A stretch of DNA of 56,521 nucleotides from Deltaproteobacteria bacterium (GCA_013349495.1 DUZK01000001.1:1-56521); one strand, 5' to 3'; shown: positions 3 to 50,801, counted from the first letter of the stretch. Numbers and translations: made by a program. The notes: generated by a model from the letters alone, not told the origin.

Positions 3-74
3 ATCCGGGCCCTCGGTGTCTATCTTTGCGAGACCCACGGACCGGAACTCAAACGGTATTACCATCAGCTCCGG
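3..74 (+). other. C-terminal helix of an ACP domain whose start lies off-window
   Basis: IRALGVYLCETHGPEL aligns by eye with the ends of ACP1 (LESLAAFLCEAYADSL) and ACP3 (INRLAAYLAETYGGL). A linker and KS1 follow it. Confidence 0.5.
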
Positions 75-14075: not shown

Positions 14076-14079
14076 GGCC

Positions 14080-17000
14080 ATGAAAACGGAAGCATTAACT
14101 CAAAATCAGATTATCGACATGGTGGAGCGCCGTCAAATCGCTCCCAAAGAGGGCCTTAAACTGCTCAAGCGATTGCAGGTAAATGGGGGGCGGGCGCTGT
14201 CGGATTCATCAGACCTATTTTTTTGCCGGCCGGTATGGAAGGAGATGGCTGATGGCTTTTCATCGGCGATGCGGCGGGTTTCCGGAGACATCCTGGTCAT
14301 TTATGAAAACGAGGCCGTTGACAAAATCCTAGAGGATCGGTTGGGGTCGGATGATTTTGGGCAAGCGCGATTTATTTTTACAAAGACCGGAACCCGCTTC
14401 GAGGCAAAGGGCCCCGGCCGCTTCACGATTCGTCCCGATCACCCGGATGACTACAATCGATTGCTTCAAGCACTCAACAAGGATTCCGGACCGCCCCGGA
14501 CCATTCTCCACCTCCTGTCCAACGATCCGTATACCGGGGAAGAAAACAGCTTGAAGGCTCAGATCGGTGCGGGTCTCTATTCCCTGTTTTTTCTGACTCG
14601 CGCGCTGCTCGCGTTAAAACCGACCGATAGGGTCCAGATTATATATTTTTATCAGGAACCTTCGGGCCGATCCCAACCCCAATATGCGGGGTGCAGCGGT
14701 TTTGCAAGAACCCTTGGGCTGGAAAGCAGGACGGTTGCCATAAAAACCGTTTCGATTCCGGATATTCAAAAAATTGCTGCCCTCTCGATTCCCAGAATTC
14801 TCGCGGTGGAAGATGTGGAGATTCGATTTCGCGGGGACCGATATCTGGTTCGAGCGCTTGAGGAATCGATACCGGACGACGCATCGGATCCCATCGGTCC
14901 GTTAAAGGAAAACGGCGTATATCTGCTGACCGGCGGGGCCGGCGGATTGGGGTTTGTTTTTGCGGAGCACCTGGCCAAACAGGTGAAGGCGAAATTGATA
15001 CTCACCGGGCGATCCCCTCTCGGTGATGAAAAAGCTTTGAAAATAGAAGCCTTGAGGGGTTTGGGTTCGGAAGTGATCTACATTCAGGCGGATGTATCCA
15101 GACAAGAGGCGGCCCACGCCCTCATCGCCCAGGCACGCTCCCGGTTCAACCGCATAAACGGCGTCATTCATTGCGCGGGGATCGTGAGGGACAATCTCAT
15201 TATCAACAAGCCGGTTGACGACCTGTCCGCCGTGATAGCCGCAAAGGTGTTCGGAACCCTTCACATGGATGCGGCCACCAAAGACGAACCGCTCGATTTT
15301 TTCGTTCTCTTCTCCTCTGTTTCGGCCGTTACCGGAAACATGGGACAGGCCGACTACGCCTATGCCAACAGCTTCATGGATCATTTTGTTTCCGTTCGGG
15401 AGCAGTCGAGACGCGAATCGAGACGGACGGGAAAAACCATATCCATCAACTGGCCCTTGTGGCGGGAAGGCGGCATGCGGGTGGATGCCCAAACCGAGAT
15501 ATTCCTCGCCCAGACTGCCGGCATGAAGCCGCTCAATCGGATGTCGGGCCTAAACGCCTTTTCTTTGTGCCTCGCTTCAAGCCACAATCGGTGGATGGTG
15601 GCGGCGGGAAACCGCGGACAGATCAGGCGGGCACTGATAGGTAAACCGGATCATGCCGGGCTCAACCGCCCGGATGCCGGTGTCCGTAAAAGAGACTTTC
15701 TTTCTGCCCTCGGCAACGATGTCCTCTCCATCGCTTCCGATATTTTAAAAATCGACACCCAGGATATCGACTGGAATGAGGATATTGGCGAATACGGGTT
15801 CGATTCCATCAGTTTTACGGAATTTGCCAATCGAATCAATCGGCAATTCCGTCTGGATATCACCCCTGCCGTATTTTTCGAGCTGCCCTCAATCGGCGCG
15901 TTCACCGAATTCCTTGCCGGAAATTACACCGATCAGTTATCCGATTACTATCGAGCCGATTCGACGGTATTGACGGCGCCCGAGCCGAAACGACCGGCGG
16001 TGGAAGGGGGTGAAAATCTCGAACCGTTTATTGCCGACCGGTTTCAGCTTCCGGCCGTCGAACCGGTCCACGCGGGAGCAGAAGACCGGTCCATTGCCGT
16101 CATCGGCATGAGCGGTGCCATGCCCGGATCCGAAGATCCGGAAGCCTTCTGGAAACACCTGGTCGCCGGAGACGACCTGATCACCGAAGTTCCGAAAGAC
16201 CGATGGGACTGGCGGCGCTTTGAACTCGATTCGACCGTCGACACCGATCAAATCAAGTGGGGCGGGTTCATGCCGGATGTGGACAAGTTCGATTGCCTCT
16301 TTTTCGGCATTTCTCCAAGGGAGGCGGAGTTGATGGATCCCCAGCAACGGCTCTTTATGGAAACCGTGTGGAAAACCATCGAAGACGCCGGGTACGCTCC
16401 CTCGAGCCTGTCGGGCACCCGAACCGGCCTGTTTGTCGGGGTGGCCACCAGCGACTACGTGGAACTCGTCCGGGATCGTGCCGCCGAAATCGAAGCCCAT
16501 GCCGCCACCGGCATGTCCCACTGCATTCTGGCCAACCGGATTTCATACCTGCTCGACATTCACGGACCCAGCGAACCCATCGATACCGCTTGCTCCAGTT
16601 CACTGGTAGCGATCCACCGGGCCGTGGAGGCCATCCGCAGCGGCAGCTGCGACGCGGCCATCGCCGGGGGGGTGAATGTGATCCTCGCACCGTCCCTTAC
16701 CATCGCCTTCGGCAAGGCCGGCATGTTGAGCCCCGACGGACGCTGCAAAACCTTTGACGCCCGTGCCGACGGATACGTCCGGGGAGAGGGGGCCGGTGCG
16801 GTGTTGTTGAAACCGCTGAGCCGGGCCGTTGCTGACGGTGATCACATCTATGCCGTTATCCGGGGCACGGCCGAAAACCACGGAGGGCGGGCAAAATCCC
16901 TGACAGCCCCCAACCCCAACGCCCAGGCGGATCTCCTGGTGGATGCCTACGAGAACGCCGGCGTGGCGCCGGACAGCGTCACCTACATCGAAGCCCACGG

Positions 17001-20000
17001 CACCGGTACCCGGCTGGGGGATCCTATTGAAATCAACGGGCTGAAGAAGGCCTTTGAAGCGCTTTGCAAAAAACAGGGGAGGACCCTGTCGTCGGAATCC
17101 GTCTGCGGCATCGGATCGGTGAAGACCAATATCGGTCATCTGGAAACGGCCGCCGGTATCGCCAGTGTCATAAAAGTGCTGCTGGCCCTGAAACACCGGA
17201 AACTCCCTGCCAGCATCCATTTCAGAGAGCGGAACCCCTACATCGACCTGACAGGAAGCCCCTTTTATATCGTCTCCGAGACCCGTGATTGGGAGCCGCT
17301 CAAGGATGCGGCCGGCGGGTGGCTCCCCCGGCGGGCCGGTGTGAGCTCCTTCGGATACGGCGGTTCCAACGCGCACATCGTTTTAGAAGAATATCAGGAA
17401 GAAGCGTTCAGTGTTCAGCGTTCAGGGTTCAGCGTTGAGCCACAGCTCATCGTCTTATCGGCCAAGAATGAAGACCGTCTCAAAGAATATGCTGAAAGAA
17501 TGGTTAAATTTCTGGATTCAACTTTGAACTCAGAACATTTAACTCTGAACCTAACCGATTTTGCATATACCCTCCAGGTTGGCCGAGAAGCCATGGAAGA
17601 GAGACTGGCGCTTGTGGTATCCGATGTTGAAGAACTTCAAGCGGAACTCGAAAAATATGCCAGAGGGGATTCTGATACAAGCAAACTCATGCGTGGAAAC
17701 GCAAGGACATTGAGGGGAACATCCGAGCAATTGGTTGAAGGCAGAGCCGGTGCAGCATTTGTTCGTATATTAATGGAAGACAGGGAATTGGGCAAACTCG
17801 GTCAACTCTGGAATTCAGGATTCGATATCGACTGGACATTATTATATCCGCAAAAACCGCCCCAGCGCATATCTCTCCCTACATATCCTTTCGCAAAGGA
17901 GCGGCATTGGCTGCCGAAGATGGTAGAGAGCCCCAGTGAAATGGGGTCTGGATTTCACGGGGTAAACATAGAGCAGAGGGCAAAGGGGTTTGGATATGAG
18001 GGAAAATTTCATCCTTTGCTTGATGCAAACATATCAACGCTGAAAGAACAACGGTTTACCACACAATTCACCGGCAAAGAGTTTTTTCTTGCCGATCATG
18101 TTCTTGCTGGGCAGAAGACTCTACCCGGTGTCGCCTATCTTGAGATGGCACTGGCTTCCGGAATGGCGGCTGCTGAGGAAGAAACCCGCAAACTTATTAA
18201 TATTGTTTGGGCGAGTCCCATTACCGTGCCGGATAAGCCCCAGAACGTTTTTATCAGTCTATATCCGGAGACTGCGGATGATAAAGTAGGGTTTGAGGTT
18301 ACCACCTTAAAAGAAGAAGGGCAGCGGCAGGTACATGCTCAAGGAAAACTGATCTTTGAAAGCCGATCATCCATTGTTGATGAAGTGATAGATATTGATT
18401 CTATTCAAACGCGTTGTACGGAGAGAGTCAGTGGTCCGGTGTGCTATCAGGCATTCCAATCTTCCGGCCTCCATTACGGTCCCGCTTTCCAGACGATCCA
18501 GGAGTTATTCCGAAGCGATAACGAAGCCTTATCGCTTCTTGTATTACCGGAAGAACTCGGGGGGAGTTTTCGTAACTTCTGTCTTCATCCCTCATTAATG
18601 GATGGCGCCCTACAAACGGTGGGGGCATTGATGAGCAGTAGCACCATAGGAACCCCGCATGTTCCATTTGCTTTAGGTGAAGTGATATGGATAAGACCTT
18701 TAACCGAAAAGTGCTATGCCCACGTCACCTCGGCAGAATATTCCGTGGATCCGAACCTGAAAAAATTTGACATTGATATAACGAATGAAGATGGACAAGT
18801 GCTGGTCCGCATGAAAGATCTTTCCATTCGAGCACTTGGACCATCCGAGGATAAGTACGAAACAATGTATTTCTCCGGCCAATGGGAATCATCACCATCG
18901 AATACCCCGCCTGCAACACAGTTTCTCTACGGTAACCTATTGTTGTTGGATACCGATGAAACTCGACAGAATGCGCTTTGCGAACAGTTGAAAACGGATG
19001 TCCTCCTGGTGAAGCCGGGAAAAAGTTTTCGAATGATCAACCCGAACACTTTTTCAATTCATCCGGGCAATCCTGATGATTATCGAAGGTTAATGAAAGC
19101 CCTGAAAAAAAATGATCGACTGCCTGAACACATCGTTCACCTGTGGTCGCAAGAGAATTTTACAGATGATGCAGGGGTACTGAATACCCAGATTGAAAGG
19201 AGTTTCTACTCTATCCTCCACCTCAGTCAAGCCCTGTTAGAATTTAAGTCCCGTGACAAGATTCAACTTCTATACATATACCCGGAACCACCGGAAGACC
19301 CCCAACCTCATTATGCAGCAATAGCCGGATTTGCCAAAACAATTCGATTGGAGATTCCGCGGTTTCAATACAAAACCATAGCCTTACCTGATTTCTCCCA
19401 TGTGGCAGATGTCGTTTCAGCTGAATTTCAAACCGATGAAGGTGTGGAGATTCGCTATCAGGATGGTCGAAGACAAATGAGACATCTGATTGAATATAAA
19501 CCGATTCCGGATGATGTTTCTCCTGAATCACTGTTGAGAGAAAACGGGGTATATATACTGACAGGCGGTACCGGTGGATTGGGACTGATCTTTGCGGAAT
19601 ACATTGCCAGACAAGTTAAAACTAAGTTGGTGCTAACAGGCCGTAGCCCTTTAAACGAGGAAAAATCCGCTAAAATTCAGATCCTAAACGATCTCGGCGC
19701 AGAAGCCGTATATATACAAGCGGACATCTCCAATCTTGAAGATGTCAAGGGGCTCATCGCCCATGTGAAATCACGATTTAACGATATCAGGGGGATTATT
19801 CACTGTGCCGGGGTTATTCGTGATGCCAGTATCGCCAAGAAAACTCCAGAAGAGGCGGCATCCGTGTTGGCACCAAAAGTATACGGCACGCTGCATCTGG
19901 ACAAGGAAACAGGATCAGAACCTCTGGATTTTTTCGTGTTGTTTTCATCCACTACTGCTGTTCTGGGAAATGCAGGGCAATCTGATTATGCTTATGCAAA

Positions 20001-23000
20001 CAGCTTTATGGATAACTTTTCTGTGTGGCGGGAGAAATTGCGGTTAGAGAAAAGACGATTTGGGAAGACGCTTTCCATAAACTGGCCGTTGTGGCAAGAC
20101 GGCGGAATGAGTATTGACCATAGGGCGGAAAAACTTCTGATACATGCGGCTGGAATTCGGCTTCTTAAAACACCTGACGGATTGGAAGCATTTTTCAGGG
20201 CTTTGGCCATGAAATTCAGCCAACTGACGGTGATAGACGGTATTCGCCGAAAAGTACGAGGTTTAGTTGTCGGCGACGGCCTTCGACGTCACGAATCCGA
20301 AGATATCGCCTCCCACTCGGTCGCACGCAAGGTTGAAGGAAAGCTGCTTCAAAATCTTCGTGAAGGATTGTTAAAAATGGCATCGGAGATCCTGAAAATC
20401 GAGGAGTCGGCCATCGATTTGGATGAAGATCTTAGTGCTTACGGTTTTGAGTCCATCACCTTCACTGAATTGGCGAATTGTATCAACGAGAAGTACAAAC
20501 TTGAAATTACGCCCACACTATTTTTCGAATACCCTTCGCTCCGATCGATCTCGCAATTCCTGTGTGAAACATATCAAAACAATATCTCAGAGGACTTTAG
20601 GAATGACGCTTCATTCATTTCACGTTCTGAATCCGATGAAGATACAGTTTTCGTCGAACCGATACAGAGAAACCGATTTCAAGTCCCCCATGACTCTGTG
20701 TACAAGCATCCATTGCCGGTTAATGTCCCGATAGCGATCATAGGAATGAGCGGCGTGATGCCCCAATCCGAAAATCTTGAGATCTTCTGGCAGCATCTTT
20801 ATAGAGGAAACGATCTGATCACGGAAGTGCCCAGGCATCGCTGGGATTGGGAAGCTTGGCATGACCATACGGCGGAAGAAGATATCAAGGCCATGGCCAA
20901 ATGGGGTGGTTTTATACCGGATGTGGATAAGTTCGATCCTCTGTTTTTTGGAATTTTACCCAGAGAAGCAGAACTGATGGATCCTCAACAACGACTCTTT
21001 TTGCAAACGGTATGGAATACCATAGAGGATGCCGGATATAAAATATCGACGCTTTCAGGCACCAATACCGGCGTATTCGTCGGAGTGGCTTCAAGTGATT
21101 ATGCCGAGATAATCCGTCAAAACGTTTCTAAGGTAGACCCCTATACATCAACCGGAATGGCGCATTCTGTTTTGGCAAATCGTATTTCCTATCTGCTCAA
21201 TCTGCATGGACCGAGTGAACCGATCGATACGGCTTGTTCCAGCTCTCTGGTCGCAATTCACCGAGCAGTGGAAGCCATCCACAGTGGAAGTTGTGAAATG
21301 GCCATAGCCGGGGGGGTCAATGCCATTTTAACCCCAACGTTGAATATATCCTTTGGAAGTGCCGGCATGCTGAGTAAAGACGGCCGTTGTAAGACATTCG
21401 ATAAACATGCGGATGGTTATGTCCGAGGTGAAGGGGTGGGGGCAGTGCTGCTGAAACCCTTGAACCGCGCTCAGACTGACGGTGACCATATTTATGGAGT
21501 GATTATCGGGACAGCCGTAAATCACGGAGGCCACGCCGCTTCGCTGACCGCTCCCAATCCGAAGGCGTTAGCTCAATTACTTATTCATGCATATAAAAGA
21601 GCGAATATCAAGATGGATACCGTAAGTTACATCGAAGCCCATGGAACAGGCACTGCTCTTGGGGACCCCATAGAAATCGACGGACTCAAACGTGCTTATG
21701 CTGAGTTGTGTAATGGCGAAGGAAAATCCCCAACCGTTCCCGCGCATTGCGGTCTGGGGTCGGTAAAGACAAATATCGGTCATTTGGAAACAGCAGCAGG
21801 TATCGCGGGTGTAATTAAAGTCCTGCTGTCGATGAAGCACAGGAAGCTTCCTCCCAGCATCAATTTCAAAGAACTCAATCCGTATATCCAACTTGAAGAC
21901 AGCCCATTTTACATTGTTACGGCTGCCCGCAATTGGGAACAATTGAGAGAAGATATCGGTCGTCCGATTCCGCGCCGCGCAGGGGTGAGTTCCTTCGGGT
22001 TCGGAGGAGCCAATGCGCATATTGTTTTGGAAGAATATGAAGAACCAGAGGTCAGCGGTCAGGGGTCAAGGGTCAGGGGTGAGCCGCAACTCATTGTAAT
22101 GTCGGCTAAAAACGAAGATAGACTTTATGCCTATGTAGAAAAGATGTTGGAATACCTGGACCAGGGGATGGACGTATCAGCTCCATCGGGTAAGGATGCA
22201 CCCCGTGAAGCAGTTTTTAAAAAAGTGTTGATTCTCATCGCTGATATCTTAAGGGTGGGGGAAGAGGATATCAATCCGGAGGAGCCTTTCGAAGAATACG
22301 GATTTGATCAAATCGGATTGACGGGTTTGGCAGAAAAGATAAGCGAAAGGTATTCATTAAACATCACTTCTTCCTTATTCACGGAATATTCGTCAATCAG
22401 CAAGTTGGCACAATACCTTACCCAGCATCGAGCATCAAGTCTAGAGCATCAAGCATCCAACGCTACCGATCTTTCTCTTTCCGATCTCGCATATACCCTG
22501 CAGGTAGGTCGGGATGCCATGGAAGAGCGGCTGGCTGTTGTGGTTTCAGACCTGGAGGAGCTTAAAGAAAAGCTAAAACGATTTTCAAACGGTGAACACG
22601 ATTATGAGGATTTCATTCGCGGCAATGCGAAGGCAATCAAAAGTAAATCCGATACTCTCGATCAAGGCAGTGCCGGAAGAGAATCTGTTCCCATCTTAAT
22701 TAAAGACCGTGAGCTCGGCAAACTCGGTCAGTTATGGGTTAACGGTTTCGATATCGACTGGACATTACTGTATCCGAAACAACAGCCTCAGCGCATATCC
22801 ATTCCCACATATCCCTTTGCAAAAAAGCGGTATTGGGTTCCAGAAAGGCAAGCGACTAAGGTAAAGCCACAAGTGGTGGATGAAACGGGTGGAATGAAGC
22901 AGATTCAAAAGCCCGCTGTTCTGGTTTTTCAACCGATATGGGAAAAAACGAGAATAGAATCGGCTCAACCGATTGCCCGAAACATACTTCTATTTGACAC

Positions 23001-25683
23001 AGATGCCCGTCGTCGAAAAGCCTTTCAACTGCGGTTCAATGGGGATATCATCCTGGTTCGACCCGGACAGCAATTCACAAAGAAGGACAGTCTTACCTAT
23101 GAGGTGAATCCTACAAACCCGAAGGATTTTATCAGCTTACTTTCGACATTGGCAAACAGGAAAAGGCCCATAGTTTCTGCAATACACCTATGGGCTCTCA
23201 GTAAAACCAGAAAGGGGGGCCTCGATTCATTTTTCCAGGGGGCAACGGGGAACCATACCGCTGGGTTGACCGAGGCAGAGAGCGACCTCCGTGCCGGTGT
23301 GTATCCGATTTATTCTTTTATCAGAGCTGTTTCCGAAACCCATTTTGACTCAATCACACAACTTTTATTCCTATACTATGGTGAAGAAGAGAAGTCGAAT
23401 CCGCTTTTTGATGCGATTTCCGGATTCTCCAAATCGCTTGGCTTTGTTCTGCCGAAACTATCGATTCGGACGGTTCGAATAGCTTCAGATATCGGGAAAA
23501 GAACGGTAGCGGATATTGCTGTGCAAGAATCGAGCATTGGGGATCGGGATTTCAAGGCTGAGATCCGATATGAGCATGACGATAGATATGTAAAGGCCTT
23601 CCATCCGCTGGGTCTTATTGACAAGAAAAAGATATCGACGCTGCGGAAGGAAGGTGTGTATTTGATCACCGGCGGTGCCGGCGGATTGGGATTGATTTTC
23701 TCCCGGTATCTGGCTGAACAATACCGGGCCAGGCTGGCCCTAACCGGCCGATCGCCGTTAAAAGGGAAAAGAAAAGAGAGCATCGATGCGCTTCGGCGAT
23801 CAGGCGCCGAGGTGTTGTACCTTCAGGCCGATGTATCCAGTGAGAATGAGATGCAGCAGGTTGTCCGAGAGGTCAAGAATCATTACGGGTCGTTAAACGG
23901 TGTGATTCATGCGGCTGGAATCTCTTCTGCAAACCTCATTACACAAAAAGAAATGGCCGAATTTGAATCTACCCTGAGCCCCAAGATAAAGGGGACCCTT
24001 GTCTTGGACAAAGTTACCCGGGCTGAATCGTTGGATTTCTTTGTTTTATTTTCTTCCACTTCGGCGATTCTGGGTGATTTCGGACAGTGCGATTACGCCG
24101 TGGCCAATCGATTCATAGATGGCTATGCCCATATGAGAGAGGCGCTTAGGAGAATCCGAGACCGACAGGGACGGACCGTTGCCATCAACTGGCCATTGTG
24201 GCGGGATGGCGGACTTCATATGGATTCGGAAGCGGAAGCTTTTTATTTTCAGACATCTGGGATGTCTTATCTTGAAACAACAGAGGGACTTCAAGTTTTT
24301 GAAGACATTCTCAAATCTGATCCTACCCAGGCAATATTGATATCCGGAGACAAGACCCGCATCGAGCAATTCTTGGGGATCAAGGAAAGAGGAAAAATGC
24401 CTGATTCCAGAAACGGTGATCGGTTCATTCCGACCGTTGCGTTGAATGATGCAGATCATTCCCATTACCTGGAGACAAACACCCGCAATATTGCATCGTC
24501 CATCATAAAGGATGAAACAGGCGAAATAGAACAAAAGCTTCAAATGGAGTTATTGAGCATCGTTTCGGAAATTTCAAAAATCGACGAAAATGAAATAGAC
24601 CCGGGAACAAGTCTGACACAATACGGCTTCGCATCCATCAGCTTTACCGAGTTTGCCTTTCGGATCAATGATCAGTTCCAAGTGGAAGTTGGGTCGACCC
24701 TGTTTTTAGACTATCCTTCCATCCGCGCCCTTTCCAGTGTTCTGTTGGAGAAGCATGAAGATAAGATCAACTCATTTTTTCGGAGCCGATTAACCGATAA
24801 TTCTTATCCATCCAAATCGCTGGTACCCATCCAATCAGGCGGAACGCGTATGCCTCTCTTCTGTGTACCCGGCGCTGGCGGAAATGGTCATTATTACTAT
24901 CAGTTATCCCGGTGCTTGGGGGAAAACCAACCGTTCTTCACATTTCTATCTTTGGGATTAGACGGAAAAACCGAGCCCCATAAGAACATCCCAGAGATGG
25001 CTTCCTATTACATTGATAGTATCTTTACGATTCAGGAGAAGGGACCGTACCTTTTAGGGGGTCACTCCCTGGGAGCCAGAATCGCTTATGAAATGGCGCT
25101 TCAATTACTGAAACAAGGGCACAGAGTGGAATTGCTTGTGGTTTTTGACGAAGTCGCTCCGGTGGCCCGAGCTAAAGATGAAGAGTATATCGATGATGAT
25201 GCCTATCTGATATGCGAGGCTGCCGCAGCCCCGGAAGCATTCAACGGTATCGATCTCAAAATATCTTACGATGATATTGAAAATCTGACCTGGGAAAAAC
25301 AGATAAACTACATGAAGGAAAGGTATCAAAGTGCCGGCTTATTTCCTCTAAACGGTACATTGGGGCAATTCAGAGGAATGATGGATGTCTATAAAGCCCA
25401 AAGACGCTTGAATTATATCCAACCCCCCAAGGCCAATCCTTTTAGGATCGTTTTTTTCCGATCAGACGAATCCAATCGGGACATCTATGAGAAGCCGGAA
25501 ATTCAAGAGGATGCGTCATGGGGTTGGAGCCGGTTTTCAGCCCATCCCGTTGAAATTTTCGAGACGCCCGGAACCCATAACACCATGTTGGCCGATCCGA
25601 ATGTTCGATCCGTGGCAAAACGCTTGAAAGACGTGCTTGCAGAAGCGATAAACGAAAGCCAATCTGATGAGTACATACCGTAA
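14080..25683 (+). CDS. AT-less modular PKS, terminal subunit: N-terminal docking helix-KR-ACP-KS-DH-KR-ACP-KS-(pseudo-ACP)-KR-ACP-TE
   Basis: The ATG lies 4 nt after the stop of the upstream PKS gene. It has two KS with the full Cys-His-His set, 1 DH, 3 KR, 3 ACP and a C-terminal alpha/beta-hydrolase TE (GGHSLG). There is no AT motif. Confidence 0.95.
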   Translation: MKTEALTQNQIIDMVERRQIAPKEGLKLLKRLQVNGGRALSDSSDLFFCRPVWKEMADGFSSAMRRVSGDILVIYENEAVDKILEDRLGSDDFGQARFIFTKTGTRFEAKGPGRFTIRPDHPDDYNRLLQALNKDSGPPRTILHLLSNDPYTGEENSLKAQIGAGLYSLFFLTRALLALKPTDRVQIIYFYQEPSGRSQPQYAGCSGFARTLGLESRTVAIKTVSIPDIQKIAALSIPRILAVEDVEIRFRGDRYLVRALEESIPDDASDPIGPLKENGVYLLTGGAGGLGFVFAEHLAKQVKAKLILTGRSPLGDEKALKIEALRGLGSEVIYIQADVSRQEAAHALIAQARSRFNRINGVIHCAGIVRDNLIINKPVDDLSAVIAAKVFGTLHMDAATKDEPLDFFVLFSSVSAVTGNMGQADYAYANSFMDHFVSVREQSRRESRRTGKTISINWPLWREGGMRVDAQTEIFLAQTAGMKPLNRMSGLNAFSLCLASSHNRWMVAAGNRGQIRRALIGKPDHAGLNRPDAGVRKRDFLSALGNDVLSIASDILKIDTQDIDWNEDIGEYGFDSISFTEFANRINRQFRLDITPAVFFELPSIGAFTEFLAGNYTDQLSDYYRADSTVLTAPEPKRPAVEGGENLEPFIADRFQLPAVEPVHAGAEDRSIAVIGMSGAMPGSEDPEAFWKHLVAGDDLITEVPKDRWDWRRFELDSTVDTDQIKWGGFMPDVDKFDCLFFGISPREAELMDPQQRLFMETVWKTIEDAGYAPSSLSGTRTGLFVGVATSDYVELVRDRAAEIEAHAATGMSHCILANRISYLLDIHGPSEPIDTACSSSLVAIHRAVEAIRSGSCDAAIAGGVNVILAPSLTIAFGKAGMLSPDGRCKTFDARADGYVRGEGAGAVLLKPLSRAVADGDHIYAVIRGTAENHGGRAKSLTAPNPNAQADLLVDAYENAGVAPDSVTYIEAHGTGTRLGDPIEINGLKKAFEALCKKQGRTLSSESVCGIGSVKTNIGHLETAAGIASVIKVLLALKHRKLPASIHFRERNPYIDLTGSPFYIVSETRDWEPLKDAAGGWLPRRAGVSSFGYGGSNAHIVLEEYQEEAFSVQRSGFSVEPQLIVLSAKNEDRLKEYAERMVKFLDSTLNSEHLTLNLTDFAYTLQVGREAMEERLALVVSDVEELQAELEKYARGDSDTSKLMRGNARTLRGTSEQLVEGRAGAAFVRILMEDRELGKLGQLWNSGFDIDWTLLYPQKPPQRISLPTYPFAKERHWLPKMVESPSEMGSGFHGVNIEQRAKGFGYEGKFHPLLDANISTLKEQRFTTQFTGKEFFLADHVLAGQKTLPGVAYLEMALASGMAAAEEETRKLINIVWASPITVPDKPQNVFISLYPETADDKVGFEVTTLKEEGQRQVHAQGKLIFESRSSIVDEVIDIDSIQTRCTERVSGPVCYQAFQSSGLHYGPAFQTIQELFRSDNEALSLLVLPEELGGSFRNFCLHPSLMDGALQTVGALMSSSTIGTPHVPFALGEVIWIRPLTEKCYAHVTSAEYSVDPNLKKFDIDITNEDGQVLVRMKDLSIRALGPSEDKYETMYFSGQWESSPSNTPPATQFLYGNLLLLDTDETRQNALCEQLKTDVLLVKPGKSFRMINPNTFSIHPGNPDDYRRLMKALKKNDRLPEHIVHLWSQENFTDDAGVLNTQIERSFYSILHLSQALLEFKSRDKIQLLYIYPEPPEDPQPHYAAIAGFAKTIRLEIPRFQYKTIALPDFSHVADVVSAEFQTDEGVEIRYQDGRRQMRHLIEYKPIPDDVSPESLLRENGVYILTGGTGGLGLIFAEYIARQVKTKLVLTGRSPLNEEKSAKIQILNDLGAEAVYIQADISNLEDVKGLIAHVKSRFNDIRGIIHCAGVIRDASIAKKTPEEAASVLAPKVYGTLHLDKETGSEPLDFFVLFSSTTAVLGNAGQSDYAYANSFMDNFSVWREKLRLEKRRFGKTLSINWPLWQDGGMSIDHRAEKLLIHAAGIRLLKTPDGLEAFFRALAMKFSQLTVIDGIRRKVRGLVVGDGLRRHESEDIASHSVARKVEGKLLQNLREGLLKMASEILKIEESAIDLDEDLSAYGFESITFTELANCINEKYKLEITPTLFFEYPSLRSISQFLCETYQNNISEDFRNDASFISRSESDEDTVFVEPIQRNRFQVPHDSVYKHPLPVNVPIAIIGMSGVMPQSENLEIFWQHLYRGNDLITEVPRHRWDWEAWHDHTAEEDIKAMAKWGGFIPDVDKFDPLFFGILPREAELMDPQQRLFLQTVWNTIEDAGYKISTLSGTNTGVFVGVASSDYAEIIRQNVSKVDPYTSTGMAHSVLANRISYLLNLHGPSEPIDTACSSSLVAIHRAVEAIHSGSCEMAIAGGVNAILTPTLNISFGSAGMLSKDGRCKTFDKHADGYVRGEGVGAVLLKPLNRAQTDGDHIYGVIIGTAVNHGGHAASLTAPNPKALAQLLIHAYKRANIKMDTVSYIEAHGTGTALGDPIEIDGLKRAYAELCNGEGKSPTVPAHCGLGSVKTNIGHLETAAGIAGVIKVLLSMKHRKLPPSINFKELNPYIQLEDSPFYIVTAARNWEQLREDIGRPIPRRAGVSSFGFGGANAHIVLEEYEEPEVSGQGSRVRGEPQLIVMSAKNEDRLYAYVEKMLEYLDQGMDVSAPSGKDAPREAVFKKVLILIADILRVGEEDINPEEPFEEYGFDQIGLTGLAEKISERYSLNITSSLFTEYSSISKLAQYLTQHRASSLEHQASNATDLSLSDLAYTLQVGRDAMEERLAVVVSDLEELKEKLKRFSNGEHDYEDFIRGNAKAIKSKSDTLDQGSAGRESVPILIKDRELGKLGQLWVNGFDIDWTLLYPKQQPQRISIPTYPFAKKRYWVPERQATKVKPQVVDETGGMKQIQKPAVLVFQPIWEKTRIESAQPIARNILLFDTDARRRKAFQLRFNGDIILVRPGQQFTKKDSLTYEVNPTNPKDFISLLSTLANRKRPIVSAIHLWALSKTRKGGLDSFFQGATGNHTAGLTEAESDLRAGVYPIYSFIRAVSETHFDSITQLLFLYYGEEEKSNPLFDAISGFSKSLGFVLPKLSIRTVRIASDIGKRTVADIAVQESSIGDRDFKAEIRYEHDDRYVKAFHPLGLIDKKKISTLRKEGVYLITGGAGGLGLIFSRYLAEQYRARLALTGRSPLKGKRKESIDALRRSGAEVLYLQADVSSENEMQQVVREVKNHYGSLNGVIHAAGISSANLITQKEMAEFESTLSPKIKGTLVLDKVTRAESLDFFVLFSSTSAILGDFGQCDYAVANRFIDGYAHMREALRRIRDRQGRTVAINWPLWRDGGLHMDSEAEAFYFQTSGMSYLETTEGLQVFEDILKSDPTQAILISGDKTRIEQFLGIKERGKMPDSRNGDRFIPTVALNDADHSHYLETNTRNIASSIIKDETGEIEQKLQMELLSIVSEISKIDENEIDPGTSLTQYGFASISFTEFAFRINDQFQVEVGSTLFLDYPSIRALSSVLLEKHEDKINSFFRSRLTDNSYPSKSLVPIQSGGTRMPLFCVPGAGGNGHYYYQLSRCLGENQPFFTFLSLGLDGKTEPHKNIPEMASYYIDSIFTIQEKGPYLLGGHSLGARIAYEMALQLLKQGHRVELLVVFDEVAPVARAKDEEYIDDDAYLICEAAAAPEAFNGIDLKISYDDIENLTWEKQINYMKERYQSAGLFPLNGTLGQFRGMMDVYKAQRRLNYIQPPKANPFRIVFFRSDESNRDIYEKPEIQEDASWGWSRFSAHPVEIFETPGTHNTMLADPNVRSVAKRLKDVLAEAINESQSDEYIP
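14220..15490 (+). other. KR3 ketoreductase (B-type signature); completes the split module KS4-DH // KR-ACP
   Basis: GVYLLTGGAGGLG (about 14920-14955), HCAGIVRDN, YAYANSF, INWPLWREGG. Confidence 0.85.
15700..15930 (+). other. ACP4
   Basis: IGEYGFDSISFTEFANRI; Ser codon 15805-15807. Confidence 0.9.
16093..17397 (+). other. KS5 ketosynthase domain
   Basis: IAVIGMSGAMPGSE...DTACSSS (Cys 16591-16593)...EAHGTGTRLGDP...KTNIGHLETAAG. Confidence 0.9.
17406..17440. repeat. Post-KS5 heptanucleotide tandem repeat
   Basis: GTTCAGT GTTCAGC GTTCAGG GTTCAGC GTTGAGC; it coincides with the GC-content break. Confidence 0.9.
17521..17555. repeat. Second-linker degenerate heptanucleotide repeat, KS5 linker
   Basis: ACTTTGA ACTCAGA ACATTTA ACTCTGA ACCTAAC, just before DFAYTLQVGR. 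Confidence 0.55.
18010..18840 (+). other. DH3 dehydratase domain
   Basis: FHPLLDANIS, LADHVLAGQKTLPG, GLHYGPAF, HPSLMDGALQ. Confidence 0.85.
18860..20115 (+). other. KR4 ketoreductase domain (B-type signature)
   Basis: GVYILTGGTGGLG (about 19549-19587), HCAGVIRDA, YAYANSF, INWPLWQDGG. Confidence 0.85.
20355..20580 (+). other. ACP5
   Basis: LSAYGFESITFTELANCI; Ser codon 20452-20454 (GFES variant of GFDS). Confidence 0.85.
20730..22038 (+). other. KS6 ketosynthase domain
   Basis: IAIIGMSGVMPQSE...DTACSSS (Cys 21235-21237)...EAHGTGTALGDP...KTNIGHLETAAG. Confidence 0.9.
22050..22084. repeat. Post-KS6 heptanucleotide tandem repeat
   Basis: GGTCAGC GGTCAGG GGTCAAG GGTCAGG GGTGAGC. Confidence 0.9.
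22210..22424 (+). other. Second carrier-protein-like insert (pseudo-ACP) in the KS6 flanking linker, Ser replaced by Gln
   Basis: AVFKKVLILIADILRVGEEDINPEEPFEEYGFDQIGLTGLAEKISERYSLNITSSLFTEYSSISKLAQYL sits at the same insertion point as in the KS1 linker. The Ser position is Gln (caa 22309-22311). Confidence 0.7.
22425..22459. repeat. Second-linker heptanucleotide repeat, KS6 linker
   Basis: GCATCGA GCATCAA GTCTAGA GCATCAA GCATCCA, after the pseudo-ACP and before LSDLAYTLQVGR. Confidence 0.8.
22920..24225 (+). other. KR5 ketoreductase domain (A-type-like)
   Basis: GVYLITGGAGGLG (about 23651-23689), HAAGISSANL (no Asp), YAVANRF, INWPLWRDGG. Confidence 0.85.
24540..24765 (+). other. ACP6
   Basis: LTQYGFASISFTEFAFRI; Ser codon 24634-24636. 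Confidence 0.85.
24820..25680 (+). other. TE chain-release thioesterase domain
   Basis: MPLFCVPGAGGNGHYY, GGHSLGARIAYE (Ser codon 25066-25068), ETPGTHNTML (catalytic His). Confidence 0.9.
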
Positions 25684-25689
25684 CCCTTT

Positions 25690-27498
25690 ATGAGGAAGTT
25701 GATTATGAATGGCACAACAACGTCTCGTTCGGAAGATAAGACCCTTCGCCGGATTTATATTGGACACGCCAACACATTTCACGATCCGTCGATCGCCATT
25801 ATAGAAGGTGACCAGATTTTTGCAGAGGGGATCGAGCGGCACATCCAGTGCAAGCGTGCCTGGGAAAACCTCCGGCTATGGTATTCCTGGCGTGCCGTTC
25901 GTAAAGCCTTGAATGACCTGGGACTTTGGCCGGTAAAGGATGCGGATGTGGTCAGCGTCACCAGTTGGGATTACGACCTGCTAAAGGAAGTGGTAGAAAA
26001 CCGATTGGTGGAGTTTGACGGCCCTGGCGGTGTCTGCATGTTGTCGCATCATATGGAGATGGAACCGATATTCAATAACCAACTGGCATGGATTCTTCGG
26101 TCCTATCCGGCCAATTTCAGCGACCAGCCCCATGAACTGGCTCCCGAGATGTTTCAGGATTCGCACAATATTTCCATTCAGATAAAGATGACCAACCACC
26201 ACCTGGCCCATGCGGCCACTGCCGTCTACACCTCTCCCTTTGACGAGTGTATGGTGATGATTATCGACGGCTATGGGGAATGGACCACCAACAGCTTTTA
26301 TCATTTTCATGACAACCGGTTCGATCTGATCCATCAGCAGGGTATACACAGCCTGGGGTTAATGTATTCCTCTATCACCGAAATTTGTGGATTCAGCAGT
26401 CTGGAGGGGGAAGAATGGAAAATCATGGGGCTTGCCGCCTATGGGGCATTTAATAATGATATTTACCAATTCTTCAATGAGCGCATCGTCTTCGACGGCC
26501 TGAGCTTTGAGATCATATACGACCCGGAAATCTACTTTAAAACGCTCATGTCGCTGATCGGCGGAATGCGGCATCCGGATGATCCGGATGTCATGAAGAT
26601 CGCCGATCTGGCCCATTGCTTCCAGCGCTTTTTCGAAGAAACGGTGGTCAAGCTGGCTAAGGCAGCCGGAGATTTGTGCCTTTCAAAGAATCTGGCCTAT
26701 GCCGGCGGATGCGCACTCAACTCTTCCGCCAACGGGAAGATACTGGAGAACACGAATTTCGAACGGCTCCATATTCCCAGTGCTCCGGCCGATGACGGCT
26801 GCTCGCTCGGGGCCGCCTTTTACGAGAAATACGCCGCCCAAAAGGATGGGAATAGGTCTGTTGCGGTGATGTCGCCCTACCTGGGCAGCATGATCGATAT
26901 TGAGCGGCTGGAAAAGATTCTGTCATTTAAAGGCATCAAATACCGCCACCTGTCGGATGAGAATGAATTGTGTGAGGAGGTGGCGATTCTGCTTGACGCG
27001 GGCAATATTGTGGGCTGGATACAGGGAAGGGCGGAATTCGGCCCCCGGGCGTTGGGCAACCGATCCATTATCGCAGATCCCAGACCGGCGGATATGAAGG
27101 ATCGGATCAACAGCCGGGTGAAATTCCGGGAAGACTACCGGCCGCTGGCCCCCTCTATTCTCCATGAGTTCGGAGATGAATATTTCGAAGGCTATCAGGA
27201 AAGCCCCTATATGGAGCGCACCCTGAATTTCCGTGATGCGGTCAAAGACAAGGTGCCGGCCGTGGTCCATAAGAACGGGACCGGACGACTTCAGACCGTC
27301 AGAGAGGAGTGGAATCCCCGCTATTATCGATTGATTCACGCTTTTTACGAAAAAACCGGCATACCTCTGGTATTGAACACCTCCTATAATGTCATGGGCA
27401 AGCCGATTGCTCACAGTGTTGAGGATGCCATCACCGTGTTCTTCACCACCGGGTTGGATTATCTTGTGATCGGCAACTACATCTTGATGAAAGGATAG
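25690..27498 (+). CDS. Carbamoyltransferase (NodU/CmcH family)
   Basis: Signature blocks: HHLAHAATAVYTSPF, GRAEFGPRALGNRSIIADPR, KFREDYRPLAPS, VHKNGTGRLQTV, LVLNTSYNVMGKPI. The ATG at 25705 has GAGGAAG 6 nt upstream and may be the real start. The gene begins 6 nt after the PKS stop. Confidence 0.9.
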   Translation: MRKLIMNGTTTSRSEDKTLRRIYIGHANTFHDPSIAIIEGDQIFAEGIERHIQCKRAWENLRLWYSWRAVRKALNDLGLWPVKDADVVSVTSWDYDLLKEVVENRLVEFDGPGGVCMLSHHMEMEPIFNNQLAWILRSYPANFSDQPHELAPEMFQDSHNISIQIKMTNHHLAHAATAVYTSPFDECMVMIIDGYGEWTTNSFYHFHDNRFDLIHQQGIHSLGLMYSSITEICGFSSLEGEEWKIMGLAAYGAFNNDIYQFFNERIVFDGLSFEIIYDPEIYFKTLMSLIGGMRHPDDPDVMKIADLAHCFQRFFEETVVKLAKAAGDLCLSKNLAYAGGCALNSSANGKILENTNFERLHIPSAPADDGCSLGAAFYEKYAAQKDGNRSVAVMSPYLGSMIDIERLEKILSFKGIKYRHLSDENELCEEVAILLDAGNIVGWIQGRAEFGPRALGNRSIIADPRPADMKDRINSRVKFREDYRPLAPSILHEFGDEYFEGYQESPYMERTLNFRDAVKDKVPAVVHKNGTGRLQTVREEWNPRYYRLIHAFYEKTGIPLVLNTSYNVMGKPIAHSVEDAITVFFTTGLDYLVIGNYILMKG

Positions 27499-27503
27499 GT
27501 AGC

Positions 27504-28784
27504 GTGAAAATAGCACTCATCACAATGGGGACCTGGGGAGATGTGATGCCGTTTCTGGCATTGGCCCGGGGGTTGGAAAAGGCCGGTTATGACATCACTT
27601 TTGCCACGGTGATGGATTTTGAAGACCGGGTTCGGGAACTTGGCTTTGCCTATGTGCCCATTCATTTCAGTTTTCACGAATATGTGCATTCCGATGAGTG
27701 CAAGGCCTCCCTTGCCGGCAGTATCACGGCGACCCGACGGCATCAGAAGAATTTTTTCAGAAAACGGCGGCAGATGCTCGAAGACGCCTGGAAAGCAGCC
27801 CGGGGGGCCGAAGCGATCATTTTCAACCCGGTGGCGTTTCCGGCCTACCACATGGCCGAGAAACTGAAGATTCCCTGTATCATGACCTCGAGTACCCCCT
27901 GTTTGTCACCGACCCGAGCGTTTCCTTATATGTTTGTGACCTCGAATCATCTGGGCGGTTTCTTAAACCGGTTGACATACGAGTTTCATCGGCTGGGCAC
28001 CAACAGCGAGCGTAAAATCGTATCTCAGTGGTGTCGGGAAACGCTGGACACGAACCCCCCTCGACCGTTTATGAATTATCTCCGGATGAATGGACGTCGC
28101 GTTCCGATCTTATATTTATACAGTCCCAAAATGGTACCGAGTCCTTCAGACTGGCCGAAAACGACCCTGGCAAGCCATTATTGGTACCTGGATCAAGAGA
28201 GCCGATGGCAGCCGCCGGCCGGGTTGGAAGCGTTTCTTTTCCGGGGACCGGCACCCGTCTACGTGGGGTTCGGGAGTATGGTGGGAACAGATCCTGAAGC
28301 GATGACCCGGATTGTGGTCTCAGCCCTTGAAACATCCGGAGAACGGGGAGTCATCTGTACCGGATCGGGAGCCATGGCCAAACCGAATAAGCCGCCGGAA
28401 ACACTCTACTTCATAGATTCCATTCCCCATGACTGGATATTCCCGCGGGTCAAGGCGGTGGTTCATCATGCCGGCGCCGGTACGGTCTGGTCCGGTCTTC
28501 GATACGGCAAACCGACGCTGGCCTGCCCCATCGCCGTGGACCAATGGTTCTGGGCCAGACGCATCCATCAACTTGGGGTGGGGCCCCCTCATCTGTCCCA
28601 AAGACCCTTGAAGAAGTTTACCGCAGACAAACTGGCACAAGGCATTCAGACCATGGTGGACGACAAAGCGATGCAGCAACGGGCAGAGGCCTTGGGAAAG
28701 GAATTGGAAAAGGAAGACGGGGAAGGGAAGGCGGTTGAATTTATCAATCGTCAAATCGAAACCTGGCAGAATTATTTAACTTGA
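27504..28784 (+). CDS. Family-1 glycosyltransferase (MGT/UDP-glycosyltransferase type)
   Basis: N-terminal block MKIALITMGTWGDVMPFLALARGLEKAGYDITFAT. C-terminal nucleotide-sugar block HHAGAGTVWSGLRYGKPTLACPIAVDQWFWA. GTG start. Confidence 0.85.
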   Translation: MKIALITMGTWGDVMPFLALARGLEKAGYDITFATVMDFEDRVRELGFAYVPIHFSFHEYVHSDECKASLAGSITATRRHQKNFFRKRRQMLEDAWKAARGAEAIIFNPVAFPAYHMAEKLKIPCIMTSSTPCLSPTRAFPYMFVTSNHLGGFLNRLTYEFHRLGTNSERKIVSQWCRETLDTNPPRPFMNYLRMNGRRVPILYLYSPKMVPSPSDWPKTTLASHYWYLDQESRWQPPAGLEAFLFRGPAPVYVGFGSMVGTDPEAMTRIVVSALETSGERGVICTGSGAMAKPNKPPETLYFIDSIPHDWIFPRVKAVVHHAGAGTVWSGLRYGKPTLACPIAVDQWFWARRIHQLGVGPPHLSQRPLKKFTADKLAQGIQTMVDDKAMQQRAEALGKELEKEDGEGKAVEFINRQIETWQNYLT

Positions 28785-29608
28785 AACTCTTTGCGCTCAG
28801 CGATCTTCATCTCGATTACAAAATCAATCACGATGCCCTGGCGGCGATTCCGGAATATCCCGATGACTGGCTGGTTTTAGGGGGTGATATCTGCACCGGT
28901 TATGAAGATCTTCGGTATGCACTGACGATCCTCTCCAAACGGTTTTCCCGCCTGCTCTGGGTTCCCGGCAACCATGATCTCTGGTCCCGAATCGGCGGCA
29001 TCCGGGGAAAGGGGGAGGAGAAGTATTGGAAACTGATCGGAATCTGCCGGGAATTCGGCGTCTTAACACCAGAAGACCCGTATCCCTTATGGAACGGGGA
29101 AGGGGGTGCGCATTACCTGGTTCCCCTTTTTCTGCTCTATGACTACAGTTTCAGACCCGGTCACATCCCCACGGAACAGGCCGTGGAATGGGCCAATGAG
29201 AGCGGGATCATGTGCACGGACGAGTATCTGCTGGATCCTTCGCCCCATGAATCCCGTATCGCCTGGTGCCATGAGCGCTGTGAGTATTCTGAGGAACGGA
29301 TCAGGAAAATCTCGGGGGAGACACCCCTTGTCCTGATCAATCATTTTCCTTTGAGAGAGGATCTTGTCAGGCTGGTTCGTATACCGCGGTTTTCGATCTG
29401 GTGCGGAACCCGCAGGACCGAATCCTGGCACATGCAGTTCAATGCATCGGTGGTCATATCCGGGCATTTGCACATACGGAGCACGAATTACAGAGCCGAC
29501 GTCCGGTTTGAAGAAGTCTCTCTGGGATATCCGAAAAACTGGAACCAGCGACGCGGGATAGCTCATTATCTGCGTCAAATATTACCGTCACCCGATCCCA
29601 GGTATTGA
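28781..29608 (+). CDS. Calcineurin-like metallophosphoesterase
   Basis: Metal-ligand blocks SDLHLD, GGDI, VPGNHDLW, INHFP, SGHLH. The TTG start overlaps the GT stop (TTGA, 28781-28784). Confidence 0.8.
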   Translation: MKLFALSDLHLDYKINHDALAAIPEYPDDWLVLGGDICTGYEDLRYALTILSKRFSRLLWVPGNHDLWSRIGGIRGKGEEKYWKLIGICREFGVLTPEDPYPLWNGEGGAHYLVPLFLLYDYSFRPGHIPTEQAVEWANESGIMCTDEYLLDPSPHESRIAWCHERCEYSEERIRKISGETPLVLINHFPLREDLVRLVRIPRFSIWCGTRRTESWHMQFNASVVISGHLHIRSTNYRADVRFEEVSLGYPKNWNQRRGIAHYLRQILPSPDPRY

Positions 29609-29609
29609 T

Positions 29610-30362
29610 ATGGTCAATAAGACTCAGGAGTTTAGAATTGGATTTGATACCGGAAACAGATCACAAGAGCCCCTCGCGCTTGTGTTCCCGAGCGGATTGA
29701 AGACGGTTGCCGATCTCATGCCCGCCTTTCACCAACTCTTCGATCGGATCATTGCTTTGGAAGTAAATGGTAAGCCGATTACCTGCGGTCCGGAGTGCGG
29801 AACCTGCTGTCGGCAATTGGTTCCAATTTCCCTGCCTGAAGCGTTTTATCTCAAATCCATACTGAACGAGCTGAAACCGAAGAGATGTAAACGGGTCAAA
29901 CACCGGATTGCGGCAATCCTGGAAAAGGTAAAAGATGCAGGGCTTCTTTCAGCTGTCTTGAATCCCAGGGAGAACATGGAGGTGGATACCGCGTATTTTA
30001 AACTCGGGTTGCCCTGCCCCTTTTTGGAGGAGAATTCATGCAGCATTCACCCGTTTCGGCCCCTGGCTTGCAGGGAATACCTGGTCACATCGGATAAGCA
30101 GTACTGTCGTAACCCCCATGGCGATGAAGTGAACCGGATCCGGATCAAGCGAAACATGGCCGCAATGCTGGCGGTCTTTGCCTCCGGGCTATATCAGGTA
30201 CCCAAGGCGCCGATTCCGCTGTTTTATTTTATGGTGTATTCCGAAAAGATTGAAAGACCGGGCCAGCTGAAATGGCCGGCCCGATCGATTCTCGATAGAT
30301 TTCTAAGTGGTCTGGTGAAGTTAAATGACGAGAACCTGCAGATTTCCATTCAGGATACTTGA
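29610..30362 (+). CDS. YkgJ/UPF0153-family cysteine-cluster protein (putative Zn/Fe-chelating domain; family includes flagellin N-methylase FliB)
   Basis: TCGPECGTCCRQLVPI and CPFLEENSCSIHPFRPLACREY match the CxxCxxCC ... CxFL..C.I...RP..CR pattern of this family. Confidence 0.75.
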   Translation: MVNKTQEFRIGFDTGNRSQEPLALVFPSGLKTVADLMPAFHQLFDRIIALEVNGKPITCGPECGTCCRQLVPISLPEAFYLKSILNELKPKRCKRVKHRIAAILEKVKDAGLLSAVLNPRENMEVDTAYFKLGLPCPFLEENSCSIHPFRPLACREYLVTSDKQYCRNPHGDEVNRIRIKRNMAAMLAVFASGLYQVPKAPIPLFYFMVYSEKIERPGQLKWPARSILDRFLSGLVKLNDENLQISIQDT

Positions 30363-30374
30363 GATACTCAGACC

Positions 30375-33399: not shown

Positions 33400-33496
33400 G
33401 ACTTCACAGATTCGCTTAATATTTTGAATATCAACGGTTGACCGTAACATCTCCAGAGAATTAACCAAACAGTAAGCAGCGTAATAGGGCAAAGCC

Positions 33497-34663: not shown

Positions 34664-34691
34664 GGTCATTTCAATTCAAAACTCCTTATGG

Positions 34692-46131: not shown

Positions 46132-46185
46132 ACTTGATACCCTCTAAAATGAAACACTCCCGGGTAACAGTGGCGCATTGATCGC

Positions 46186-46602
46186 TTATGGCCTTTTAAC
46201 CACAAGTTGCAGAATGTTTCTGCCGGATTCTCTTCGGTAATCGACGCTATCCATCAGTTCTTTGATCAGAAGAATTCCTAATCCCCCAATTTGGCGATCA
46301 CTGATATCCGCTTCCACATCCGGTGTTTCAATGGATTCGAAATCGAATGGTTCGCCTTCATCTATGATCTCGATGACGAATTGACGGTCATGTTCTATGC
46401 GGCATGCCACGATTGCTTCGCCGGTTTCTTCCGGGTATGCATAGTTGAAAATATTAACCAGCGCTTCTTCAACCGCAATTTTTATTTCATTAAGTCTTTC
46501 CTCACTGAAACCAACGGTTTCGGCCGCTTCGGCAATAAATTGGATGAATTCGGATAGATTCTTTTGTGAGGCTTGCCGTATGATATGTGCCGGGAGTTCC
46601 AT
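46186..46602 (-). CDS. RsbW/SpoIIAB-type anti-sigma-factor-like serine kinase (HATPase_c)
   Basis: N-box EEALVNIFNYAY, IEIIDEGEPFD, GGLGILLIKELMDSVDY. The gene starts 4 nt after the STAS gene stop. Confidence 0.85.
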   Translation of the reverse strand: MELPAHIIRQASQKNLSEFIQFIAEAAETVGFSEERLNEIKIAVEEALVNIFNYAYPEETGEAIVACRIEHDRQFVIEIIDEGEPFDFESIETPDVEADISDRQIGGLGILLIKELMDSVDYRRESGRNILQLVVKRP

Positions 46603-46606
46603 GAGT

Positions 46607-50789: not shown

Positions 50790-50801
50790 AAAAAAATGCG
50801 C

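Follow-up and report, generated by a model that had tools for sequence, protein, structure and literature searches.

Trans-AT polyketide synthases (PKSs) are established to recombine behind their KS domains (Helfrich et al. 2021, PMC7930024). Behind the motif NAHVILEE the similarity between natural hybrids falls away (Mabesoone et al. 2024, Science, PMC11260071), and the published hybrids are too diverged for the natural site to be placed within about 100 residues (PMC11260071). Fusions engineered at NAHVILEE stalled, whereas those made at LPTYPFx5W were productive (PMC11260071). In the cis-AT PKS genes of Streptomyces, repeat elements called GRINS drive gene conversion (Nivina et al. 2021, PMC8256042). 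The subject of this article is a stretch of 56,521 nucleotides from a Deltaproteobacteria bacterium (GCA_013349495.1, DUZK01000001.1:1-56521), referred to throughout as the window, and within it the second of two PKS genes, open reading frame ORF2 (14080-25683), which by Pfam encodes KR-ACP-KS5-DH-KR-ACP-KS6-KR-ACP-TE. ORF2 is very probably a natural recombinant trans-AT polyketide synthase, in which a 5' part of one origin is joined at 17373-17377 to an 8.3-kb block (17377-25683) of another. The PKS genes, their domains, the joint and the tailoring genes that follow all lie on the plus strand.

The locus resembles the natural mosaic trans-AT PKSs (PMC7930024) in two respects: a shared module series ends at a KS and is followed by different modules, and the KS stays with the modifying domains that precede it, as seen for KS2, KS5 and KS6 of the window. 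It differs from the published hybrids in having a comparator gene that is 96% identical in nucleotide sequence, a joint at one codon boundary, and an un-ameliorated step in the GC content of third codon positions (GC3). Like the NAHVILEE engineering site (PMC11260071), the joint sits at an NAH(I/V)(V/I)LEE motif. It is unlike the LPTYPFx5W site (PMC11260071): the KS5-flanking subdomain as far as LPTYPF arrived together with the new modules, which assigns the exchange point to the NAHVILEE type and not to LPTYPFx5W. The kind of object, a post-KS mosaic trans-AT PKS, is already known; what is new is the exact natural breakpoint together with a paired gene of parental type.

Part of the evidence is compositional. 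The preliminary description of this DNA had reported an abrupt drop in GC and codon usage within the second PKS gene, on the basis of hand counts that are right to within 2 bases per 60-nucleotide line and of three codon strings for HGTGT that are located, as claimed, at 1083, 16996 and 21640. A GC3 change-point analysis and a permutation test agree on the drop. In the codon frame of ORF2 there is a single change, at nucleotide 17380 (maximum likelihood; 2-log-likelihood interval 17350-17482), with a GC3 of 0.662 to the left and 0.465 to the right; the likelihood ratio of 61.7 compares with a mean of 2.8 and a maximum of 7.5 over 200 permutations. The profile is a step and not the gradual trend that had been named as evidence to the contrary, with 60-nucleotide bins of 0.70-0.85 up to 17379 and of 0.25-0.60 thereafter. 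The fraction of GCC among alanine codons is 0.32 in the block, against 0.51 in the upstream PKS and 0.52 in the tailoring genes, and that of CGG among arginine codons is 0.16, against 0.47 and 0.38. Across the genes of the host genome (G000), the median GC3 is 0.55 and the 5-95% range runs from 0.45 to 0.65; on this scale the block falls near the 7th percentile and the upstream PKS near the 95th. Neither is extreme alone, and the anomaly is the step of 0.2 in GC3 within one reading frame. The notion that the block is host-like and the rest foreign was rejected, as the two occupy opposite tails of the genome's GC3 distribution at a similar codon-usage distance from the genome mean (0.64 for the block and 0.57 for the upstream PKS; the tailoring genes stand at 0.36).

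The joint is located by comparison with close relatives, namely a same-genus genome (G001) and a metagenome contig from ENA (L011) encoding the protein P0123, whose type of ending is called R-type. P0123 was retrieved in a protein search for which the query was the N-terminal 1100 residues of ORF2; it has 3042 residues, is 94% identical over that part and contains no DH. L011 is collinear with window positions 4230-17376 at 91-95% nucleotide identity (median of 150-nucleotide bins 96%), and G001 matches 7427-17375 at 92-94%, its contig C505 being 94% identical over the 5' part of ORF2. In the flank, the genes at 44445-50856 match G001 at 92-95%. Genome-wide, 1-kb fragments of twenty large G001 contigs match G000 at a median of 90.5%, and since the upstream PKS matches G001 and L011 at or above this level, it displays ordinary orthologous identity. 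At nucleotide 17376 (maximum-likelihood breakpoint, interval 17373-17376) the identity to L011 falls from 95.9% to 56.8%. The identity breakpoint and the GC3 change point are independent signals and lie 4 nucleotides apart; together with a three-way nucleotide alignment they place the joint between CAC, the codon for His1099 of NAH, and ATC, the codon for Ile1100 of IVLEEY. At the protein level, the KR, ACP and KS5 ahead of it are 95-99% identical to P0123, and the flanking subdomain (FSD) directly behind KS5 is 53% identical; the domains after it either match P0123 no better than paralogues do or lack a counterpart there. P0123 continues behind KS5 as FSD-ACP-KS-FSD-KR-ACP-TE, an ending also found on G001 contig C388, which is 90% identical to P0123; contig C505 ends inside its own heptamer array. 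The gene for P0123 has a GC3 of 0.654 ahead of the NAH codons and of 0.598 beyond them, with no step at the matching site.

This is the comparison with homologous clusters that the preliminary description had proposed, and its outcome is the predicted one: the 3' block is swapped, and the last modules and TE have a different origin from the rest of the PKS, in that homology to the relatives ends at 17376. The joint at the C-terminal end of KS5 likewise agrees with the post-KS boundary that had been named as the exchange point. The more specific placement of the break at a heptamer array holds only in part, as the array (17406-17440) is close by, but the crossover lies 30 nucleotides 5' of it and the array belongs to the incoming side. 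A crossover within the array itself was rejected, since identity is already gone in the 29 nucleotides between NAH and the array.

That the block merely drifted to lower GC in place, through relaxed selection or local mutational bias and with no transfer at all, has a negligible probability. The GC3 of the block (0.47) does still fall within the 5-95% range of the genome, but drift is unable to make a step within a few codons or to erase 96% orthologue identity on one side of a codon boundary, and the comparison with L011 and G001 already contradicts it. Moreover, the domain order differs from that of the relatives, with the reading frame and catalytic motifs intact.

A further explanation would make the joint an assembly artefact, with similar PKS genes of two co-occurring organisms mis-joined at the repeated sequence of KS end and heptamers. 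The window is contig C1 of a fragmented, metagenome-assembled-genome (MAG)-like assembly (3.87 Mb in 334 contigs, GC 0.484, 92.7% complete, 3.8% contamination), and the joint lies in sequence that recurs behind every KS. The joint is also where two other contigs break off, C505 of G001 and L049 of Logan, and sequences of the window type (W-type) and of the R-type come from ENA analyses with neighboring accession numbers. The check on this explanation rests on other assemblies. L047 (ENA ERZ27247117) is a contig of 55,153 bp whose ends differ from those of the window; it matches 15705-37498 with 2 mismatches and runs across the left joint. L049 (SRR26275509) covers 17388-28784, and L048 (ENA ERZ24794672) covers 25193-29452, such that the border between the TE and the carbamoyltransferase gene is spanned by all three. 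Each of the three carries its own two single-nucleotide polymorphisms (SNPs) at different positions. The left joint is therefore repeated in a second assembly with different ends and SNPs, and the right border is common to three others. An artefact would also imply two false joins, both in frame (at 17376 and near 25685), followed by a flank that is 92-95% identical to G001. The remainder of the G000 assembly holds no R-type 3' end, the best match over at least 200 nucleotides being 73.6%. An assembly error is for these reasons very improbable.

The incoming block is an open frame of two complete exchange units, FSD-DH-KR-ACP-KS6 and FSD-KR-ACP, plus the TE, and the catalytic motifs of its KS, KR, DH, ACP and TE are all intact. 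It opens with the low-GC subdomain flanking KS5 (17377-17916; IVLEEY ... LPTYPFAKERHWLP), which is only 53-55% identical in amino acids to FSD5 of the relatives, the level of a paralogue, and finds its best match, at 60%, in the other FSD of the block. Both of these FSDs begin with ATY GTT TTR (Ile-Val-Leu), whereas most upstream KSs use GTG GTT CTT (Val-Val-Leu). There follow, as assigned by Pfam, a DH-KR-ACP (18010-20589; best database identity 50-55%) with HxxxGxxxxP and GGTGGLG intact, and KS6 (20722-22020) with its Cys, HGTGT and NIGH motifs intact and 70-72% identity to KSs of the same clade. The KS6-flanking subdomain (22021-22884; best identity 43-44%) contains a heptamer array at 22050-22084 and a carrier-protein-like insert without the Ser at about 22210-22424. 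The terminal KR-ACP-TE with the stop codon (22885-25683) has a KR of 44-45% identity at best and an ACP of 50-52%. The TE is 62-64% identical to those of both related cluster types and is found only in this cluster family.

The search for a donor comprised a word-indexed protein search, a pattern scan of contigs from genome assemblies, two metagenome contig scans and an exhaustive phmmer search over 1.84 billion representatives. Across this range the block's FSD5, DH, KR and KS6 have no counterpart above 72% anywhere, the cluster type of genome G035 included, and exhaustive phmmer returned nothing above 45% for the terminal KR-ACP-TE. Recent gene conversion within the genome was considered as the origin of either the block or the post-KS linkers and was rejected, the best within-genome match being 81%. 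Because it has a post-KS6 heptamer array, a linker insert that resembles a Ser-less carrier protein, and a TE restricted to the family, the block appears to come from a diverged member of the same PKS family and not from an unrelated phylum. The heptad peptide encoded by such arrays occurs in only 6 of the 148 large trans-AT PKS proteins retrieved. Separate KS phylogenies, which the preliminary description had advised, give a divided answer: KS6 shares its functional clade with KS2 and KS5, yet falls outside a subclade with support 95/87 that consists of KS2, KS5 and two KSs from contig C10 of the same genome, and this separation is weak. KS2, KS5 and KS6 each follow DH-KR-ACP and share one clade; since the trans-AT rule predicts this placement of KS6, the tree is of limited use as a decisive test.

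To the right of the block GC3 climbs again, from 0.48 to 0.60; the change point is best placed at 25825 (interval 25360-25858; likelihood ratio 29.8 against a permutation maximum of 10.6), an interval that includes the stop codon of the TE and the start of the next gene (25683/25690). The tailoring genes in this region (25690-32447; Pfam) encode a carbamoyltransferase (CT), a glycosyltransferase (GT), a metallophosphoesterase, a CxxCxxCC protein and a PRMT-like methyltransferase; a PPTase is also among the downstream genes. GC3 remains at about 0.56-0.64 up to 32447 and is 0.46-0.48 in the two genes that follow. The codon usage of the tailoring genes resembles that of the upstream PKS and the genome mean, and only the block differs. 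Their recovery in GC is nevertheless no evidence of a common origin, as these genes look native and carry a history of their own. The implication of the preliminary description that everything outside the block shares one origin does not survive, for the tailoring genes are only 68% identical in nucleotides to those of the relatives and their tree conflicts with that of KS5. More precisely, they are 68.5% identical to the R-type genes (L011, L046, G001), below the 1st percentile of the genome-wide comparison, and 75.5% identical to a third cluster type (G035/L043/L044). In this third type (L010, which is G035:C168, with L043 and L044) the homologue of KS5 is followed directly by KR-ACP-TE, and L043/L044 share an identical KS with G035, a genome of the same order with a GC of 0.63. 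The carbamoyltransferase tree groups the window with the L043 type and places the R-type outside (support 100/99), whereas the KS5 tree groups the window with the R-type and places G035 outside; pairwise identities of the TE, CT and GT are consistent with this conflict. Two features of a hybrid PKS are thus seen here, a high-identity module series ending at KS5 and conflicting trees on either side of the joint.

The tailoring genes, at least over 25690-30362, evidently have a history different from that of the upstream PKS. At least two histories thus lie 3' of the joint, and they may reflect one compositionally mixed donor, two events, or a change of tailoring genes in the R-type lineage. The R-type cluster also differs in content. 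L011 carries a sulfotransferase (its positions 19136-20404) between the TE and the carbamoyltransferase and, within 25207-29129, a nonribosomal peptide synthetase (NRPS; C-A-PCP-TE) behind the CxxCxxCC gene, both absent from G000; in the window the PRMT-like methyltransferase stands at the position of this NRPS, and the R-type cluster has no PRMT-like gene. Everything 3' of the joint, up to the flank, is non-orthologous to the relatives: no G001 counterpart at orthologous identity was found for about 27 kb (17377-44444, in searches that excluded 33401-36599 and against a genome that is 88% complete). Within it lie the block, the tailoring genes, the PPTase, an ABC binding protein, an MFS/GNAT operon and the start of a partner-switch locus. 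The right-hand crossover, and with it the end of the non-orthologous stretch, is bracketed only between 30353 and 44445, the position at which the matching contig of G001 sets in.

The window lineage probably holds the derived state for the block, a direction that is favored because the compositional step occurs in the window only. Events could instead have run the opposite way, with the 3' end of the window (block, tailoring genes or both) being the older and the G001/L011 lineage having replaced its ending, gaining ACP-KS, the sulfotransferase and the NRPS. The tailoring genes of the window have the most host-like codon usage, and their CT and GT are 77% and 74% identical to the G035-type genes, on a par with 74% for KS5, as expected under vertical descent of these genes; the sulfotransferase and the NRPS are, in addition, extra genes of the R-type. 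However, the R-type gene is uniform across the site at which the window shows its step, and the block's FSD5, DH, KR and KS6 are without a close counterpart even in the G035 type. The opposite direction is unlikely on these grounds; it could also apply to the tailoring genes with the block still imported, in which case the mosaic remains.

A natural recombinant thus accounts best for ORF2. An R-type-like assembly line would have been fused with the 3' part of another PKS of its family, diverged and lower in GC; the fusion point lies exactly behind the NAH codons, at the C terminus of KS5, and the incoming 17377-25683 would have replaced the FSD-ACP-KS-FSD-KR-ACP-TE of the relatives. The event was likely a homologous or homeologous crossover in the short conserved stretch that encodes GGxNAH(V/I)(V/I)LEEY, a stretch that recurs behind every KS and would each time be followed by an unstable (G[G/T]TCAGN)n array. 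We infer that the hybrid enzyme is active, and that the penultimate extension would yield an alpha,beta-unsaturated unit where the relatives form a beta-keto unit. Four points weigh against this account. No donor closer than 45-55% (70-72% for KS6) was found in the searches listed above, such that the foreign origin is drawn from contrast alone. A single donor of the block and the tailoring genes would itself need a mixed GC3 (0.47 versus 0.60). The third cluster type (G035/L043) ends differently again, and no outgroup fixes the ancestral state. Finally, engineered fusions at the same motif stalled in other trans-AT systems (PMC11260071).

The linkers behind the other KS domains place the exchange in a wider setting. 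Three related clusters have three endings behind a homologous KS5: KR-ACP-TE (L010/L043/L044), ACP-KS-KR-ACP-TE (L011/L046/L009) and the DH-KR-ACP-KS-KR-ACP-TE of the window (17377-25683), so the site behind KS5 is a repeated point of change. Within the region shared by the window and L011, the linkers behind KS2, KS3 and KS4 (window 6330-6480, 8880-9000 and 12540-12720; L011 2146-2161, 4571-4609 and 8150-8650) are the only sites with large indels or local replacement. Behind KS4 the divergence again begins just behind NAH-VV, and L011 has there a carrier-protein-like insert of about 300 nucleotides (LGLEQVG, with no Ser) that is not in the window. The linker differences after KS2, KS3 and KS4, together with the genome-wide heptamer arrays, lead to the view that post-KS linkers are recurrent sites of exchange or slippage, and among such linker exchanges the swap behind KS5 is the most drastic case. 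As a separate observation, window positions 3349-6374 are 82% identical to G001 contig C706 but 91% to L011, where neighboring stretches are 92-95% identical to both; there may have been an older additional exchange around KS2.

The array behind KS5 (17406-17440) consists of the units GTTCAGT, GTTCAGC, GTTCAGG, GTTCAGC and GTTGAGC, that is, (GTTCAGN)x4 plus GTTGAGC, and is translated as FSVQRSGFSVE; the relatives carry a GGTCAGG-type array at this site instead. In-frame post-KS arrays occur in the window at 1493-1513, 6353-6373, 12569-12596, 17406-17440 and 22050-22084. Behind the KS domains of both PKS contigs of the genome (C1, the window, and C10) the unit is read in frame, as FRVQGSG or VRGQGSE. 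Outside these two contigs, the GTTCAGG/GGTCAGG unit forms 15 array sites, all intergenic and some beside an inverted copy, on contigs C9, C27, C29, C45, C70, C72, C75, C77, C124, C173, C256 and C265. The three endings behind KS5, and the smaller cassettes that were exchanged or resized after KS2, KS3 and KS4 in genes that are 96% identical, are the basis for the idea that NAH(V/I)(V/I)LEEY codons and unstable heptamer arrays behind every KS make up a built-in recombination hot spot, which we put forward as a tentative and rather doubtful possibility.

Like GRINS, these arrays are DNA-level repeats within PKS coding sequence at positions where segments are exchanged. Unlike GRINS, they are 7-nucleotide tandem arrays that are also intergenic across the genome, the crossover adjoins the array and is not inside it, and the host is of the Desulfobacterales type with a trans-AT PKS. 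GRINS are defined by intense nucleotide skew, high identity between modules and an association with gene-conversion tracts; among the post-KS linkers of G000 the highest identity is 81%. TAACTGA is an intergenic heptamer direct repeat found genome-wide in marine Beggiatoaceae (PMC4679880). The G000 repeat is akin to TAACTGA and to the cyanobacterial STRR in being a lineage-specific 7-nucleotide tandem repeat scattered in intergenic DNA, and is unlike them in its unit, GTTCAGG/GGTCAGG, and in being also read in frame behind KS domains.

The two PKS genes occupy 3-25683. The first, ORF1 (3-14075; GC3 0.645), has a 5' end that runs off the contig and by Pfam encodes KS1-DH-KR-ACP-KS2-ACP-KS3-KR-ACP-KS4-DH; it is 91-95% identical in nucleotides to L011 from 4230 onward and 82-94% identical to G001 contigs. 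With ORF1 belongs the 5' part of ORF2 (14080-17376; GC3 0.662; Pfam), which encodes KR-ACP-KS5 up to the His codon of NAH. The window PKS is a trans-AT polyketide synthase, as it has no integrated AT, the genome encodes a free-standing AT, and its KSs are followed by flanking subdomains of the type that ends in LPTYPFx5W. Pfam finds zero Acyl_transf_1 matches across the 8557 residues of ORF1 and ORF2, with their six KS domains, and behind every KS it finds RhiE-like and CurL-like linkers, with LPTYPF motifs, where the flanking subdomain takes the place of an AT. The free-standing protein is encoded on contig C232 (4493-6676; GC3 0.54) and has two Acyl_transf_1 stretches, with GASLGE in one and GHSLGE...AFHS in the other, and no PKS domains. 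Its reading frame runs off the contig end; this tandem AT is probably the trans-AT of the window pathway. By eye, the tail behind the second AT resembles the start of an enoyl-reductase domain; Pfam matched the AT family only. Contig C10 (35.7 kb), the highest-GC contig of the genome (0.539), carries three PKS genes with eight KS domains of the window type and the same post-KS heptad peptides, and probably encodes the part of this assembly line that lies upstream of the window PKS. The organism, which is uncultured, is assigned to the Desulfobacterales type because its S12 protein falls into a cluster, at 90% identity or above, with proteins of Desulfosarcina and of Desulfobacteraceae MAGs.

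With a recombinant and a 96%-identical gene of parental type side by side, the joint can be assigned to one codon boundary, at NAH and not at LPTYPFx5W. The W-type and R-type pair thereby offers a natural test case for a hybrid that is joined at the NAH site and retains its own flanking subdomain, and it bears on the design rules for engineered polyketides. If the hybrid is active, nature would succeed at a site where laboratory fusions stall, possibly since the flanking subdomain travels with the downstream units. The locus is a rare exact example of natural part-swapping in antibiotic-type assembly lines.

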